Part shown: one piece after another, positions 7,298-39,685 of the stretch | Numbering within the stretch: position 1 is the stretch's first letter | Layout of the letters: every line of letters begins with the position of its first letter | From: a virus | Taxonomy: Duplodnaviria; Heunggongvirae; Uroviricota; Caudoviricetes | Reading direction: 5' to 3' (one strand) | DNA length: 43,179 nt | Virus record (IMG/VR): IMGVR_UViG_2561511241_000008 | Span: 1-43,179 of that record | Notes under the pieces: generated by a model | What the model saw: only the letters and a program-made list of their open reading frames with translations | Databases searched by the model: none | What the model was told of the DNA's origin: nothing | Position numbers and translations under genes: made by a program

Positions 7298-7741
7298 TCA
7301 GTTAATTAACGTTTTGAAAAAACCTTTCATAGAATCAAGTGTGATTTCTTGGCTAACCGCACCCTCAATGTAAGCATCTTTCCATGGCTGCTCTTCGTGA
7401 GTCATATTGCGCAGTTTCCAGGCAGAAAACTGACCATAAACTTTATACACCTCATCCAGCAATTCAATTTCATCTTCACTGAATTTTTTAGCGTCAAAGT
7501 TTTCTGGCGCAGGTAAAGCTCCGTTACCACAGTCCCTATATTTACGATACAATTCAGGAACTACTGGCCCATGCATCCAGGCTTCAATTTTCTCATTAAA
7601 TAGCGGCTTACCCAGAAGAACCAGAGAAAACCCTTGGGCATAATACGTCAACTTCTGAATTTTTAGGTTAGAGATAATGTCGCCACTTTCTTCATCGCAA
7701 TGCGCCAAGAAGTAGTCGGCGACATCAAAACAAGTGAGCAT
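7298..7741 (-). CDS. DUF4065/Panacea-domain protein (SocA/GepA-like antitoxin-type)
   Basis: motifs KIQKLTYYAQGFSL and WMHGPVVPELY characteristic of DUF4065; GGAGG 7 nt before ATG at 7741. Confidence 0.7.
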   Translation of the reverse strand: MLTCFDVADYFLAHCDEESGDIISNLKIQKLTYYAQGFSLVLLGKPLFNEKIEAWMHGPVVPELYRKYRDCGNGALPAPENFDAKKFSEDEIELLDEVYKVYGQFSAWKLRNMTHEEQPWKDAYIEGAVSQEITLDSMKGFFKTLIN

Positions 7742-8115
7742 AAACATACCTCCATCTTGATAGCCGCAGCTATGTATACAACTGTGTCAAGTTGCATTTA
7801 ATACCATAACAAAGCTGTCATCAATCCTTCAGAGGCTAACTTACAACCACTTTCTCGACACGTTTAAATCATTACGTTTCACATTTACTGCATTTTCGCC
7901 GAAGTTACCTATAAGGTAATGTCACATTTCCTGCAAGTTTCATGCAATGTTGAAAAGTGAGCTATTCACTTTTCTATGACACTAAACACCAAAAATAGCA
8001 CTTTTTGCTAAATCATTAGTCCAAGTTGTGGATGGTTTGTCGTTGACACGTTTTCACACACCACTCCACCAATACAGTATCATCTGGTATCCTGCTCAAA
8101 ACTAAGGAGGTTGGT

Positions 8116-18516: not shown

Positions 18517-18735
18517 TTACTGCTGTGGTTGTTGCTGAGTTGATTTTTGCAGGATGCTGCTGATGTCCATGCGCTGCGCATGGCCTTGCGCCTGACTTTT
18601 CAGGACAAGCTCTGCATCAGCACGGGCATTATCTCCTTGCTGTTGCTGGAACTGTCCGAGCAGTTTCAGCGCCTCACGGATATCAGATTTTTGCTGGCTA
18701 TCGGCAGATGCGAGGATTTTCACAACATTTGCCGC
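18517..18735 (-). pseudogene. Portal protein C-terminal fragment displaced by IS insertion
   Basis: in-frame continuation AANVVKILASADSQQKSDIREALKLLGQFQQ... aligns with recalled P22 portal C-terminus. Confidence 0.75.
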
Positions 18736-18777
18736 TGAACCGCCCCGGGTTTCCTGGAGAGTGTTTTATCTGTGAAC

Positions 18778-19668
18778 TCAGGCTGCCAGATCATTGTTTC
18801 CGATGGAAGCATAATAAGCTTTTTCTGCTTCTGCCGGAGGAGTATGGCCCAGCCTTCCCAGCAATCGTCGATTGTTATACCAGTCCACCCACGTTAGTGT
18901 GGCCAGTTCCACTTCTGCACGGTTTTTCCAGCTCTTACGGTGTATTACCTCCGCTTTGTAAAGACCATTGATGCTCTCAGCCATCGCGTTGTCATACGAG
19001 TCGCCTGTACTCCCTGTTGATGCCAGTAATCCGGCTTCTTTTAGTCGCTCCGTATAGGCCAGTGACACATACTGAGAGCCTTTATCGCTGTAATGGATGG
19101 TGCCAGACGGACGACGGGCCCACAACGCCTGCTCCAGCGCATCCAGCACGAATGTCGTTTCCATAGACGATGAGACCCGCCCCCCCACGATGTATCCGGC
19201 AAACACATCAATGATAAACGCCACATAGACGAAGCCCTGCCATGTGCTGACGTAAGTAAAATCAGCCACCCACAGCTGGTCAGGACGTTCTGCCACGAAC
19301 TGACGGTTTACGCGGTCACCTGTGGCAACGGTTTTCCGGCTGACGGTAGTGCGGACCTTTTTACCCCGGAGAACACCGGCAAGTCCCATAACCGCCATGA
19401 GGCGCGCCACTGTACATCTGGCCACCCTGATTCCTTCCCGTAACAACTGACGCCAGACTTTACGCACACCGTACACCTGATGATTTTCATCGTATACGCG
19501 CTGTATCTCTCTCTTCAGCCAGTCATCGTGCTGCGCACGGGCACTGCGTTTATCCGGATGATGTCGCTGTTGCTGACAATGGTAATACGTTGACGGGGCA
19601 ATATGCAGTTCGCTGCATACCGGTCCGACCCCGTACTGCTCACGCAGCTTATCCAGCAGTGGCATCAT
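18778..19668 (-). CDS. IS3-family transposase OrfB (DDE catalytic domain)
   Basis: 296 aa with IS3-type motifs; ATGATG start overlapping orfA-frame end. Confidence 0.85.
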   Translation of the reverse strand: MMPLLDKLREQYGVGPVCSELHIAPSTYYHCQQQRHHPDKRSARAQHDDWLKREIQRVYDENHQVYGVRKVWRQLLREGIRVARCTVARLMAVMGLAGVLRGKKVRTTVSRKTVATGDRVNRQFVAERPDQLWVADFTYVSTWQGFVYVAFIIDVFAGYIVGGRVSSSMETTFVLDALEQALWARRPSGTIHYSDKGSQYVSLAYTERLKEAGLLASTGSTGDSYDNAMAESINGLYKAEVIHRKSWKNRAEVELATLTWVDWYNNRRLLGRLGHTPPAEAEKAYYASIGNNDLAA

Positions 19669-19746
19669 TTTTTCCAGAGGCGGTCGAACTCCGCCTTCGC
19701 AAAATAAGCGGAAGCCTGGCGAAGGATATCGTTACTGCGGCGCAGT

Positions 19747-19992
19747 TCACGATTTTTCACGTTCCAGCTCTTTCAGACGCTGACGTTCAGCGCTGGTGAG
19801 CCCACCATCACCGCCCCCGGTATCCCGCTCATGCTGGCGAACCCAGACACGCAGAGTCTCCGGCGTACAGCCAATCTTTGGGGCAATGGAACAAATTGCC
19901 GCCCACTGTGAGTCATATTCATCCTGACTTTCCAGAACCATACGAATCGCCCGCTGACGGACTTCGGGGGAAAAACGAGTATTTTTAGTCAT
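19747..19992 (-). CDS. IS3-family OrfA (helix-turn-helix), apparently truncated
   Basis: [21 protein letters not shown]... IS629-type OrfA N-terminus; ORF stops at 19747 while the OrfA-like tail continues in another frame. Confidence 0.75.
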
Positions 19993-20043
19993 CCTGTTTA
20001 CCTCTTTCTCAGGGAGTTTAGTCTCCAGGATTTCCGGGGCGGT

Positions 20044-22035
20044 TCACGCTGCAACCTGAGCATCCGTCTGTGCCTGGAATGCTTTAACCTGAATGGCTGC
20101 CTGCTCGTTCTGCGCTTTCTGCAATTCAGCCTGACCAGCAAGAAGCTGACCTTGCGCTGCAACCATAGCCGGATCTGGCTGACTGGCCTGTTGTTGTTTC
20201 GCCTGTTCAACCATCTGCTGTTCTTCAGGCGTTCTCGGCTTGATAACGCCAGACAGAAGCAACTGATTGCGGTTGTATTCTTTCAGGTCGTCCATCCCTT
20301 CGCCGTCCATATTGTCGAGAATCATCGACGATACAAGGTCGTGCTTCGGCGTTCCTGGTGGGATAAGTGCCAGCATGGAAAGTAACGACTTAACCGTTGC
20401 GTCACGGCGAGTAGCGAACGACTGACCGACATCGACAGTCACTTCATAGTTACCCTGCGAAAGGTCGTTAAGCGCGATAACCTGCCCTGTCTGACGGTCA
20501 ACCACTTCACCAGTCATCAGCGCCACGTCATCGCTGCCGTCCTCATTAACGATACGCATCGGCGTATCGCTGCCATAGACTTCACGCGCCATAGAAAGCC
20601 ACACAACGCCAGCGCGACGCATAGATTTAGCCATGTTGTCCATGTAGATATAGGACTGCGTGTCCATCCGGTTAAAAATGCTATCAACGGTATCAGTAGC
20701 GACGTTGCTCGGCATGTTCTCAAGCTGCGACGCACCTGTAATTTGCTGAATAGCCGTTCCGGTGTACTGCAATAGCCCGGCAAGAGCTGGAGGCATTTGT
20801 GTCGGAGGCGTATAACTGCTGACCTGAGCCTGCGCAGTAATATCTCCGTTTTTGTTTTTCAGACTGACCATCGGCAGGAACGCCGGGCGCTTTTTGTTGC
20901 GCTCCGCCCAATGAGTGGCGAGAGGACCAGGAATCATGTCAACATCAACTACAGGAATGCCATCACCGCCAGCCTGAGTAGCGTTATCTGCAATCATGGA
21001 AACCATCAGGTTCTCAAGACGCTGTGCATCCATCGCTTTTGCTGCGTGTCCTTCAATTCGCTCCTGATTATCAACAAATGAGCGACGCCCATATACCGGG
21101 ATGAGAGGAATATGTTCGCCCGGAATACGCTTCGGTTCTTCCAGCCATTCAGCGCCAGACAGAAGACCGCAATAAACTCGGCGTTTCTTCACTGTCCGCT
21201 CACCAATCAGTTCGAATGCACCATCGGTCAGCTCGTCGACAATATCTTTGATTTGCTCTTCATCATAGATTGCCGTTTCTCCGCTAACAGGGTTACGCCA
21301 TGCTGTGAGCTTCACCTTCTCTATGCGAACTTCGTAGTAGCGACCAACATAGATGGCATCGGTCGTTGACCAGTCATATTGAGTGCCAGTGTCATCACGA
21401 GAAAGGCTTGCCGCGGTGGAATCAGGGTATTCAGCCTCGAACGCTTTAGGCGTCATGGAGAACATTTCCATAGCCCACATAGCATCAGAGCGGTCATATT
21501 GCTTGCTGTCCTGATCGAAGAAGACGCATGTTGCTGGGTCGTAAACCGGGAGAAGGCTTATACGGCGTTGCTCGTTACTCGGATCCATTTCATCTTCGTA
21601 ATCGGCACACATGCGGAAACAACCGAATCCACCCGTTACAGCATCATCAAATGCGTTATCACACGCTTCGCCACCGGATGTTTCCTGATAATCAGCGCGG
21701 AATTTGCCGTTCATCTTTTCGGCTAACGCTTCCGATGCCTTATCGTCCTTCGGTCTGAATTTAACGCTGATGCGATTCTGTCGATACTCGCCAATGATGC
21801 GATCACATTCACGGGCAATCTTATTCAGTTCAAAACGCGGATAATGCTCAAACCTGCCTTCATCAAATGAGTAACCAGCGTTTGTGCTGCCTTCCCACTG
21901 TGCGCCGGATACCCGGACGAAACGTTGAGCCTCAATAATCTGCTCACGCATATCCTGCGTTGCTGACCAGGCATTATCAAAGTTGCACAGCACCTTGCGA
22001 TGCCAGTCAGTCATCTTTCTATCATCAGCCATCAT
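20044..22035 (-). pseudogene. Portal protein (P22 gp1-like), 3' end interrupted by IS; reading frame terminates at TGA inside the IS inverted repeat
   Basis: N-terminal ~663 codons intact; stop at 20044-20046 lies in IS terminal repeat. Confidence 0.8.
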
Positions 22036-34792: not shown

Positions 34793-35509
<717 letters not shown>

Positions 35510-35624
35510 TTCCAATTGTGATTTATGAGCAGTCAATTCCGCCAGATTGGTGATGATGACAAGCCGCTATAGCTTAGCTTCAACATGAATACATTCATCG
35601 TAACCACAGCAGGGAGTTTAACGA

Positions 35625-36626
35625 ATGAATTCTATTGAAAATCATGATGTTTATGTGTATACAGGCGATATTCATCGTGATGGTTATCTTGATCTCACCA
35701 ATGAAATCAAGAAACGTAAGTCACAACATGGATTAAAAGAGAATGTTATCTTCTGTGTTGCTACTTATGGCGGTGATCCAAATGCAGGTTATCGTATAGG
35801 TAGAGCTCTACAACACCATTATGAAACGGTAACACTTTTAGTTGTTGGACCATGCAAAAGTGCTGGTACACTAATAGCTATAGCAGCCAATAAACTTGTT
35901 ATTGGTGACATGGGGGAGCTTGGGCCATTAGATATCCAACTGAAAAAAAACGATGAAATAGGTGAGATGAGTTCTGGTTTAGCTATCATGACAGCTCTTG
36001 ATGCTCTAAAGGAACGCTCTATTTCAGCGTTTAACTCACACCTTGTTAAGATAAGATACGAAAATCAGATAAGTACTAAAATGTCTGCTGATATCGCGAC
36101 CAGACTTACAGAAGCGTTGATAGCACCTATGGCCGCACAGATAGATCCAATAAAGCTTGGTGAACATCAGCGCGCAATGAGTATAGCTATCACTTATGGC
36201 CAACGATTAGCAGACAAACCAAGCAGCCTAAAAGAAGGGGCGTTAGGCAAACTAATAGCCTCATATCCTTCACATGGATTTGTTATAGACAGAAAAGAAG
36301 CCAAGGAACTTTTCAAGTGTGTTGAGCATCCTAAAGGTATAACAGAAATACTCTATAATCTTTTCTGTGACAAAATTCATAATGGTGACATTCCAACATT
36401 TGGAAAGCCGAGGGTTATTGATTGTACAACGTATCTACAAAAAGAGGAAAAAGCTAATGCCGAAGAATCTGCAACCGGAGATGGAAATTCTCAACAAGAT
36501 GTTGGAAAGCCAGATCCAAGAAGGTCACGATCTGGCAAAAAAAGCGGAACAACACCTGAACGAGATCAAGAAGGAATTGGAGCCGTATCAATTCAACCAC
36601 CAGATGAACAGCAACCTAATGCATGA
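35625..36626 (+). CDS. ClpP/SppA-fold serine peptidase-like protein in rexAB slot
   Basis: motifs TYGGDPNAGYRIGRAL and VVGPCKSAGTLIAIAA resemble ClpP/SppA-family active-site region; AGGGAG 8 nt before ATG; low-complexity C-terminal tail. Confidence 0.55.
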   Translation: MNSIENHDVYVYTGDIHRDGYLDLTNEIKKRKSQHGLKENVIFCVATYGGDPNAGYRIGRALQHHYETVTLLVVGPCKSAGTLIAIAANKLVIGDMGELGPLDIQLKKNDEIGEMSSGLAIMTALDALKERSISAFNSHLVKIRYENQISTKMSADIATRLTEALIAPMAAQIDPIKLGEHQRAMSIAITYGQRLADKPSSLKEGALGKLIASYPSHGFVIDRKEAKELFKCVEHPKGITEILYNLFCDKIHNGDIPTFGKPRVIDCTTYLQKEEKANAEESATGDGNSQQDVGKPDPRRSRSGKKSGTTPERDQEGIGAVSIQPPDEQQPNA

Positions 36627-36642
36627 TCTCTTTGCTCTGTAA
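36457..36642 (+). CDS. Small 61-aa ORF overlapping the 3' tail of the peptidase-like gene
   Basis: AAGAGGA 8 nt upstream of ATG at 36457; different frame from upstream gene. Confidence 0.4.
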   Translation: MPKNLQPEMEILNKMLESQIQEGHDLAKKAEQHLNEIKKELEPYQFNHQMNSNLMHDLFAL

Positions 36643-36654
36643 TTAATTCCTCAC

Positions 36655-36680
36655 AACCCGGCCTCAGCGCCGGGTTTTCT
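36655..36680 (+). terminator. tImm-like intrinsic terminator
   Basis: AACCCGGC-CTCAGC-GCCGGGTT-TT; same hairpin as recalled for lambda tImm. Confidence 0.65.
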
Positions 36681-36833
36681 TTGCCTCTCGCTCCCCTTTC
36701 CCAACAACACATAACCATTTGTATTTATTGGAAAACTAATAGATACAACTTGCTAAACAGTGCAATTCTGATCCCTCACCTACCTAACAATTCACCCCTG
36801 CAAAAAATAAATCCATATAAAAAACATACAGAT

Positions 36834-36896
36834 AACCATCTGCGGTGATAAATTATCTCTGGCGGTGTTGACACAAATACCACTAGCGGTGATACT
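36834..36896 (+). promoter_or_regulatory. Left operator OL3-OL2-OL1 with pL
   Basis: 17-mers at 36834-36850, 36854-36870, 36878-36894 (TACCACTAGCGGTGATA); -35 TTGACA 36868-36873, -10 GATACT 36891-36896. Confidence 0.85.
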
Positions 36897-36942
36897 AAAC
36901 ACATCAGCAGGAAGCTGGAAGCCAAACGGAACAGATTGGCAG

Positions 36943-36976
36943 GCTCTTTAACTTCGATGGGGCGCTGACAAAGCGC
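36943..36976 (+). promoter_or_regulatory. nutL (boxA GCTCTTTAA, boxB GCGCTGACAAAGCGC, P22-type)
   Basis: boxB hairpin with GACAA loop at 36962-36976, boxA-like 36943-36951, between pL and N. Confidence 0.6.
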
Positions 36977-37095
36977 AAACAGATACCAAACGAGATGGGT
37001 TTGGCGGTGATGTGAATTGCAGCAGCAACGACAGCAACCAGAAGATCAGCATCTGGCGCATTACCACCAAAGCCATTTCACATGAGGAAAATATC

Positions 37096-37404
37096 ATGAC
37101 GGTAATCGTGTACGGAAAATCAACATTTGCAGGAAATGCCAAAACTCGCCGTCATGAGCGGCGCAGAAAGCTGGCTATCGAGCGTGATGCTATATGCAAC
37201 ATCATCGATTCGATCTTCGGCACAGACAGTGAGGAACCTGTTCAGGAAGCCCCGAGAAAGCGTTTAAGCATTTCTGAAAAAGCAATATCACTCGGCATCA
37301 TTAGCAAATCAAATACAGATGCGAATAGCGGAAGCGTTTGTTTGCCTGAAGTTGCACTGTATGCTGCTGGTTACAGAAGGCAAAAACTAATTACAGCGAG
37401 GTAA
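37096..37404 (+). CDS. N: N antiterminator (P22 gp24-like, arginine-rich motif)
   Basis: MTVIVYGKSTFAGNAKTRRHERRRKLAIERD... matches P22 gene 24 product as recalled; GAGGA 7 nt upstream; ORF-track start at 37012 (GTG) rejected. Confidence 0.8.
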   Translation: MTVIVYGKSTFAGNAKTRRHERRRKLAIERDAICNIIDSIFGTDSEEPVQEAPRKRLSISEKAISLGIISKSNTDANSGSVCLPEVALYAAGYRRQKLITAR

Positions 37405-38582: not shown

Positions 38583-38716
38583 GCACTGTGTATTCATTCC
38601 AACGAGTGAATACACGGAGCAATGTCGCTCGTAACCAAACAGGAGCCGACTTGTTCTGATTATTGGAAATCTTCTTTGCCCTCCGGTGTGAGGGCAATTT
38701 TTTTGACGGAGGATAT

Positions 38717-39685
38717 ATGAGTGAAGTAACAGATTTAGTTGTTATTGAAAAAGCAAATGCAATGACTGTATTTCAGTCTGCCGACCAGATTGAAGAAATC
38801 CTTCAAAAGGTTGAACGTGAAGTTATGTCCTTTGTGCCTGATATCACAACGGCAAAGGGCAGAAAGGAGATCGCTTCTCTGGCGTATAAAGTTGCGCAGA
38901 CGAAAACATATCTCGATGGTCTTGGAAAAGACCTTGTTGCTGAACTGAAGGAAATTCCAAAGCTAATTGATGCCAACCGCAAGACAGTGCGCGATCGCCT
39001 TGATGAGCTGAAAGCCAAGGCACGCCAGCCTCTTACTGATTATGAAGAGGAACAGGCGCGAATTAAAGCTGAAGAAGAAGCTAAGGCAGCAGCTGAAGCT
39101 CTCGCAAAGCAAATTGAGTCTGACCATGAAATAGCGATTTTGATGGATCGCGAATTTGACCGCCAAAGAGAAGAGGCAAGACTCAAAGCGGAGCAGGAAA
39201 AGCGAGAGCATGAAGAACGCTTAAAAAGAGAAGCTGAAGAGAAAGCCAGAGCTGAAGCCGAAGCAAAGGCAAAAGCCGAAATTGAAGCAGCAGCAAGGCG
39301 AGAAGCAGAAGCTAAGGCCGCAGCGGAACGTGCAGAGCGTGAACGCATTGAAGCCGAGCAACGAGCACAGCGCGAAACAAAAGAGGCAGCAGAACGAGCT
39401 GAAAGAGAAAAGCAGGCGGCAATTGAAGCAGAACGCCGAAAAGCACAGGAGGAGGCTGAACGAATCCGGCGCGAGGCTGAAGCAAAAGAGCAAGCCAGAA
39501 TAGCAGAAGAAAAAAGAATCAAGGAAGAAGAAGAGCGTAGAGCAAAGGATAAAGCTCACCGGAAAGAAGTAAATAACAAAATACTTGCTGACCTTATCAA
39601 GGTTGGCGCATCAGAAGATGTTGCTAAAAATATCATAACAGCCATCGTAAAAGGCGAAGTATTCGCAACAAAAATAACCTACTAA
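38717..39685 (+). CDS. Coiled-coil protein with Ala/Glu/Lys/Arg-rich repeat core
   Basis: ORF 38663-39685, ATG at 38717 after GGAGGA; central EAKAKAE-type repeats. Confidence 0.5.
   Translation: MSEVTDLVVIEKANAMTVFQSADQIEEILQKVEREVMSFVPDITTAKGRKEIASLAYKVAQTKTYLDGLGKDLVAELKEIPKLIDANRKTVRDRLDELKAKARQPLTDYEEEQARIKAEEEAKAAAEALAKQIESDHEIAILMDREFDRQREEARLKAEQEKREHEERLKREAEEKARAEAEAKAKAEIEAAARREAEAKAAAERAERERIEAEQRAQRETKEAAERAEREKQAAIEAERRKAQEEAERIRREAEAKEQARIAEEKRIKEEEERRAKDKAHRKEVNNKILADLIKVGASEDVAKNIITAIVKGEVFATKITY

Follow-up and report, generated by a model that had tools for sequence, protein, structure and literature searches.

A Clp-fold protease-like gene and a probable embedded gene in the cI-to-pL slot of an Escherichia coli prophage

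Among the genes that occupy the interval between cI and N of lambdoid phages are nun of HK022 and stk of 933W. The same interval is a hotspot that holds rexA and rexB in lambda and bstA in BTP1, on the cI strand and followed by a terminator before pL, and it is already the source of several exclusion systems (PMC8585504). Here we analyse a widespread further occupant of this slot in IMG/VR virus record IMGVR_UViG_2561511241_000008, a stretch of 43,179 nucleotides (hereafter the window) that is a complete P22-like prophage of Escherichia coli UMNK88. This occupant is a cassette with the same strand and the same terminator arrangement, in which the gene of a 333-residue protein resembling Clp-fold serine proteases carries, over its 3′ end and in the +1 frame, an open reading frame (ORF) of 61 codons. 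Comparison of homologous loci indicates that the small ORF is very probably a real embedded gene, and it appears to have gone undescribed so far. In other E. coli prophages that share the right flank and have a cI about 90% identical, rexAB lies at exactly this position, and neither rexAB nor bstA has any sequence relationship to the cassette. Whereas rexAB comprises a sensor and a membrane protein, the cassette would comprise a Clp-fold protease and an embedded helix.

Double-stranded DNA (dsDNA) phages have other genes that hold a second functional gene. Rz1 of lambda is read in the +1 frame of Rz, and its product acts in concert with that of Rz; in the sieB–esc locus of P22 and lambda, SieB is restrained by the internal product esc. 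The cassette resembles Rz/Rz1-type overprinted pairs in having a second ORF in another frame inside the first, with both apparently selected, and differs from both precedents in that the proteins and functions are unrelated and the overlap spans a disordered tail. For the 333-residue protein itself, the closest described relatives are the SDH-family proteinases (PF01972 and NF047768), which provide its best profile matches and share its RefSeq name; descriptions of that family mention neither the helical C-terminal domain and disordered tail of this protein nor an embedded gene. More distant are the self-compartmentalising Clp/crotonase-fold enzymes ClpP, NfeD 1510-N and SppA, with 13–19% sequence identity. 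Unlike these, the 333-residue protein has no AAA+ partner, stomatin or membrane anchor that we could find in it or near its gene.

A second reading frame over the disordered tail

The 333-residue protein consists of a Clp fold (residues 1 to about 117), a helical domain (residues 118–280) and a disordered, charged tail (residues 281–333). An earlier note, made from the letters of the window, had reported this ORF with two protease-like motifs and a low-complexity tail, together with the overlapping 61-codon ORF and its Shine–Dalgarno sequence AAGAGGA. All of these features are present (Table 1), and the end coordinate that it gave for the region, 36680, includes the terminator. The tail contains 7.5% hydrophobic residues compared with 30% in the core, and is modelled with a predicted local distance difference test score (pLDDT) of about 42–54. 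The stop of the 61-codon ORF lies 16 nt past the protease stop codon. Whether the two ORFs are overlapping genes or the result of a frameshift had been left undecided.

To compare the two frames, we used 67 non-redundant homologous loci, at 39–100% identity, that had been identified by scanning viral contigs. All members of the family end in a hydrophilic tail of about 55–70 residues that varies in sequence. In nearly all of the loci the +1 frame over this tail is open for 55–70 codons from an ATG and ends shortly past the protease stop; the +2 frame across the tail is open in none. The same two-frame arrangement is present in six further genomes (Klebsiella, Malonomonas, Bartonella, Mannheimia, Neisseria and one metagenome-assembled genome). 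By itself, openness of the +1 frame is weak evidence, because a hydrophilic tail without T at codon position 2 rarely makes +1 stops, and synonymous resampling of the tail leaves this frame open in around 44% of trials. Openness was therefore set aside after this control and tests of periodicity and conservation were used instead.

Nucleotide diversity, computed per main-frame codon position in the enteric clade, is 0.16, 0.07 and 0.51 at positions 1, 2 and 3 of the core and 0.39, 0.26 and 0.24 at the same positions of the overlap. Position 1 minus position 3 gives −0.34 for the core, −0.22 for the linker immediately 5′ of the overlap and +0.15 for the overlap itself (bootstrap confidence interval for the overlap, 0.075–0.227). 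Wobble positions of the +1 frame coincide with position 1 of main-frame codons, and the switch in periodicity falls at codon 280 or thereabouts, with the ATG of the 61-codon ORF lying within codon 278. The shift is repeated in three other clades.

Conservation of the encoded proteins points in the same direction. Across pairs of loci with at least 60% core identity, compared over the same bases, the +1 protein outdoes the main-frame tail; at 80–90% core identity the two show 60% and 46% identity, respectively, with the +1 protein ahead in 41 of 41 pairs. When the +1 protein is instead held fixed and its codons are resampled synonymously, about 94% of trials close the main frame (median probability of an open frame, 0.01), yet it is open in all 67 loci. 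On the basis of the periodicity switch, the conservation of the +1 protein and the maintenance of an open main frame, we consider the region genuinely dual-coding, and selection apparently maintains both frames throughout a large, mostly prophage-borne family.

Features of the small ORF are consistent with an embedded gene. Its ATG is invariant and a LEPYQ motif is conserved within the clade; in many loci the +1 frame is shut by stops 0–45 nt 5′ of the ATG. The product, which includes the peptides AEQHLNEIK and ELEPYQFNHQMNSNLMHDLFAL, is predicted to form one long helix (residues 3–60, pLDDT 84) and contains 31% hydrophobic residues. In 47 of 61 loci, the ATG that was chosen has a Shine–Dalgarno-like core 5′ of it, a count that is inflated because such motifs are expected to be common in G/A-rich tail codons and the best ATG was picked for each locus.

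These results bear on the proposal that only the 333-residue protease is made and that the 61-codon ORF is a by-product of composition, arising because a hydrophilic, low-complexity tail seldom creates +1 stops. In its favour is the resampling result described above. Homology of the small proteins across distant clades is, moreover, undetectable by profile search (E > 0.1, although 21 of 24 weak matches were in the +1 frame); for this reason, we claim conservation of the small protein within clades only, and the small proteins appear to evolve fast. The ORF is also almost never annotated: 8 clusters among 5.8 billion and 5 matches among 1.84 billion representatives were found, none of them named. 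We infer that this is to be expected, as gene callers skip genes so deeply embedded in another. Set against these points are the change of codon periodicity at the ATG, seen in four clades, in favour of the +1 frame, the superior conservation of the +1 protein in every pair at 80–90% core identity, the invariant start, the closure of the frame immediately 5′ of it, and a confidently predicted helix with a hydrophobic content unlike that of a random frame. A compositional origin is, on this balance, very unlikely.

Joining of the two frames by programmed ribosomal frameshifting or transcriptional slippage, to give a protease with a helical C terminus instead of or besides the disordered tail, would accord with both frames being open over about 170 nt and with an A7 run inside the overlap (around 36534–36540), but is highly improbable given that no slippery site is conserved (LAKKAEQ of the window is replaced by LARKAEQ in homologs), that the ATG, its upstream Shine–Dalgarno-like core and the +1 stops preceding it recur among loci, and that a deletion variant (L094, described below) retains a separate 61-codon ORF. 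A sequencing or mutational frameshift is ruled out by the retention of the two-frame arrangement in essentially all homologs. The comparative evidence thus answers the question left by the earlier note in favour of a conserved embedded gene.

The predicted Clp-fold protein

The 333-residue protein carries TYGGDPNAGYRIGRAL at residues 47–62 and VVGPCKSAGTLIAIAA at residues 72–87, from which it had been called ClpP/SppA-like. Profile search and structure prediction, the checks proposed with that label, gave support for a Clp fold, with profile scores below threshold. Pfam SDH_protease (PF01972) scores 29.6 bits over residues 44–108 (cut-off 31.3), CLP_protease scores 19.0 bits over residues 38–90 only (gathering cut-off 20.2), NfeD1b_N matches weakly, and NCBIfam Clp_like_SDH (NF047768) reaches 36.7 bits against a cut-off of 250. 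The two SDH-family profiles align with residues 43–114 only, and all of these partial matches cover the nucleophile region. The Peptidase_S49 profile has no match in the protein. With these scores, the ClpP/SppA label is a loose one. By comparison, PHROG 21683, a family of unknown function, aligns with the protein from end to end (E = 8e-185).

An AlphaFold2 model built from 79 homologs (pLDDT 82; predicted template modelling score (pTM) 0.73) is confident over residues 1–280, with low confidence in a loop (residues 105–118) and in the tail. Its best matches in the BFVD library of viral structures are giant-virus 'serine dehydrogenase proteinases' (E = 8e-8; template modelling (TM) score 0.41–0.46 over 230–280 aligned columns). 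In a separate structure search, crotonases ranked below the leading matches. The predicted Clp/crotonase fold of the N-terminal half is supported by both profile and structure methods. RefSeq, in which the protein is named an SDH-family Clp-fold serine proteinase, names the protease family and assigns a function to none of it; many of the homologs have precomputed PF01972 hits.

Ser79, the putative nucleophile, is aligned with Ser97, which is the nucleophile in the protease NfeD 1510-N. Across the 79 homologs, Cys77, Lys78, Gly81 and Thr82 are invariant and Ser79 is conserved in at least 90%, and further invariant residues are Asp103, His181, His217 and the pair Asp222–Arg223. The protein is probably an active Clp-fold serine protease. 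No transmembrane helix is apparent: the sole hydrophobic 19-residue segment (Kyte–Doolittle 1.7) is a buried strand–helix around Ser79 in the model, and the protein is predicted to be cytoplasmic. No unfoldase or AAA+ gene was found among the neighbours of the cassette.

Two other identities were considered and rejected. A prohead (head-maturation) protease or scaffold remnant is ruled out by the score against NF045542 (34.4, cut-off 120) and by the distance of about 15 kb between the head genes and the immunity region. A membrane SppA is ruled out by the lack of both a Peptidase_S49 match and a membrane segment.

Slot, distribution and possible role

The cassette, at 35510–36651 (1.14 kb), is a self-contained unit of cargo in the lambdoid cI-to-pL slot, lying on the same strand as cI and closed by a terminator of its own. 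The pL-like promoter, just 5′ of the N gene, delimits the slot as the interval from cI to pL and N. The placement in the rexAB slot that the earlier note had proposed is confirmed, and no terminator-like site was found on the plus strand between cI and the 333-codon ORF, leader included. The cI gene is the upstream gene of the operon and lies outside the swapped cassette; its DNA is about 90% identical to that of the cI adjoining rexAB in other E. coli. The leader moves together with the cassette, as it is 96% identical in L094, in which cI is only 66% identical. The terminator hairpin (folding energy −14.6 kcal/mol, z = −2.6) marks the right edge and is part of the flank that is kept in prophages with other cargo. 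The G+C content of the cassette is 39.6%, compared with 47.1% in the window, and an Rfam search over 35300–37200 returned no known RNA family.

Many E. coli prophages with an approximately 90% identical cI and the same terminator/oL flank carry other cargo in the slot: rexAB, PIN plus NYN genes, a HicA pair, a P63C protein, a DUF1828 pair or hypothetical genes. It is these prophages that set the limits of the cassette at about 35510–36651 and that show the exchange of cargo in the slot which PMC8585504 describes. The repressor is lambda-type and the virion genes are P22-like; the immunity region is thus a mosaic, in which the stop codon of cI and the terminator were the points of cargo exchange. 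The DUF1828 pair, a hypothetical protein plus a DUF1828 protein (L097 651–1954, E. coli SSGw1; the same pair in Nissle 1917, H81), weakly matches the PADLOC candidate system PDC-M24 A/B (E = 5e-4 and 5e-10).

The cassette is present in 28 of 5,426 complete E. coli genomes, being 100% identical in UMNK88, and the 333-residue protein has 1,574 database relatives; the arrangement is therefore no chance feature of one sequence. The family ranges from Enterobacterales to Bartonella and Neisseria. At 55 distinct loci, no conserved partner gene was found on either side, and an S24 repressor is the upstream same-strand neighbour in 22. This repressor-adjacent arrangement is also seen in Bartonella and in a Klebsiella Rac-like prophage. 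Other members adjoin integrases, sit at prophage edges or are lone chromosomal genes. One metagenome-assembled prophage with a 44%-identical homolog (L103 9838–10791) has a TIR-like gene (CAP12-PCTIR_TIR, weak) and an integrase within 4 kb.

Three independent knock-outs of the protease leave the small ORF intact. One is an in-frame deletion, found in at least 10 contigs, among them L094 (2736–3186; Logan contig SRR15416671_268) and L095 (Logan contig SRR20643101_156). It removes codons 3 to about 228, joins codons 1–2 to about 229 onward at a short microhomology and retains the tail with the 61-codon ORF; this allele sits 3′ of a different S24 repressor. The other two are nonsense mutations, at codon 142 in L017 and codon 31 in L041. 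Loss of the protease with retention of the small ORF would be the pattern expected of an enzyme-plus-antidote pair.

Taking these observations together, we tentatively favour a lysogen-expressed exclusion, abortive-infection or addiction module with a protease as effector and an embedded helical modulator. A defence role is suggested by the position of the cassette and by the other occupants of the same slot. In the proposed mechanism, the cassette would be co-transcribed with cI from pRM/pRE in the lysogen and would act as a two-component system. The 333-residue protease would be the effector; as it has no unfoldase partner, its targets would be peptides, or proteins that are unstructured or labile. 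The helical protein encoded within its gene would be the cognate partner that modulates it, most likely by inhibiting it or by conferring self-immunity. Because the overlap would couple the synthesis of the two proteins, infection could upset their balance and thereby unleash proteolysis.

Several observations weigh against this proposal. At an E value of 1 or below, PADLOC-DB 2.0.0 has no family for either the 333-residue or the 61-residue protein, and the literature searched by family names contained nothing relevant on this family, results that also bear out the earlier suggestion that this is not an already characterised defence gene. Some homologs are lone chromosomal genes without phage or defence neighbours, and the three protease-null variants do not differ significantly from the expectation given by target size.

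The cassette could instead be a lysogenic-conversion or addiction (toxin–antitoxin-like) element that benefits host physiology or prophage maintenance and has no antiphage role. The presence of a HicA toxin pair in the same slot, the combination of an enzyme with a small partner, and the low G+C content, as in a moron (accessory prophage gene), all fit such an element, and the protease-null variants with an intact small ORF add circumstantial support. Many toxin–antitoxin-like modules of this slot exclude phages too, however, with rexAB as the paradigm, and we regard a role confined to conversion or addiction as unlikely.

Distinctly unlikely is that the cassette serves the lysogeny circuit of the prophage itself, through turnover of repressor fragments, of CII/N-like labile regulators or of an antirepressor. 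Such a role is suggested by the adjacency of a protease to a self-cleaving repressor and by the recurrence of a cI/LexA-type repressor next to it in the 22 of 55 loci mentioned above and in Bartonella and Klebsiella. Members of the family also occur, however, next to integrases, at the ends of prophages and alone on chromosomes, and deletions or nonsense mutations have eliminated the protease from immunity regions that are otherwise intact. Prophages with the same cI carry unrelated cargo or rexAB, and cI therefore does not need the cassette.

A more specific form of the exclusion proposal is doubtful as a whole: that a partner-less ClpP-fold protease is an abortive-infection effector whose inhibitor or self-immunity peptide is overprinted on its own disordered tail, and that the pair has spread through prophage repressor operons across Proteobacteria. 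If true, a protease-based defence with a built-in antidote would constitute a new effector class and a new genetic architecture for phage immunity, in which effector and antidote are hard-wired into one dual-coding stretch of DNA. The embedded gene, if real as we consider very probable, would be a clear-cut new example of overprinting among dsDNA phages. It would also affect the design of any experiment on the family, as a knock-out or clone of 'the gene' would alter two proteins at once.

Prophage setting and coordinates

The window matches the UMNK88 chromosome at 100% identity, and the prophage is integrated at tRNA-Arg/intS. Coordinates of the features of the immunity region are collected in Table 1.

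Table 1. Features of the cI-to-N region, in positions of the window
Feature	Position	Strand	Remarks
cI-type repressor gene	34796–35509	+	Pfam Peptidase_S24, E = 5e-28; also HTH_3
Leader specific to the cassette	35510–35624	+	115 nt; GGGAG 8 nt 5′ of the protease ATG
333-codon ORF (WP_001084325.1)	35625–36626	+	ClpP-fold serine-protease-like
Ser79 codon	35859–35861	+	AGT; motif C77-K78-S79-A-G81-T82
Shine–Dalgarno-like AAGAGGA	36442–36448	+	8 nt 5′ of the ATG of the 61-codon ORF; in the main frame, part of K-E-E-K
61-codon ORF	36457–36642	+	+1 frame relative to the 333-codon ORF; MPKNLQPEMEILNKMLESQIQEGHDLAKKAEQHLNEIKKELEPYQFNHQMNSNLMHDLFAL
Dual-coding stretch	36457–36623	+	About 167 nt; main frame, predicted disordered tail; +1 frame, predicted helical protein
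Intrinsic terminator	36655–36684	+	AACCCGGC-CTCAGC-GCCGGGTT plus T-run; G+C-rich hairpin at 36655–36676
pL-like promoter	36868–36896	+	TTGACA-17-GATACT; just 5′ of the N gene
N antiterminator gene	37096–37404	+	

Elsewhere in the prophage, the portal gene is interrupted by an IS3-family transposase, annotated as frameshifted, at about 18517–22035 of the window (L084 18834–22352). The prophage is probably unable to make virions; the immunity region and the cassette are intact. A gene for a Panacea-domain protein (an antitoxin-type domain) lies on the minus strand at 7298–7747 (L084 7615–8064), in the ant/arc (immI-like) region, and may represent a second accessory toxin–antitoxin or defence locus. 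In the pL operon, an ORF for a 340-residue protein on the plus strand (38663–39685), annotated in RefSeq as hypothetical with a later start (WP_000005787.1), contains a very long, charged region of E/A/K/R repeats that is coiled-coil-like.

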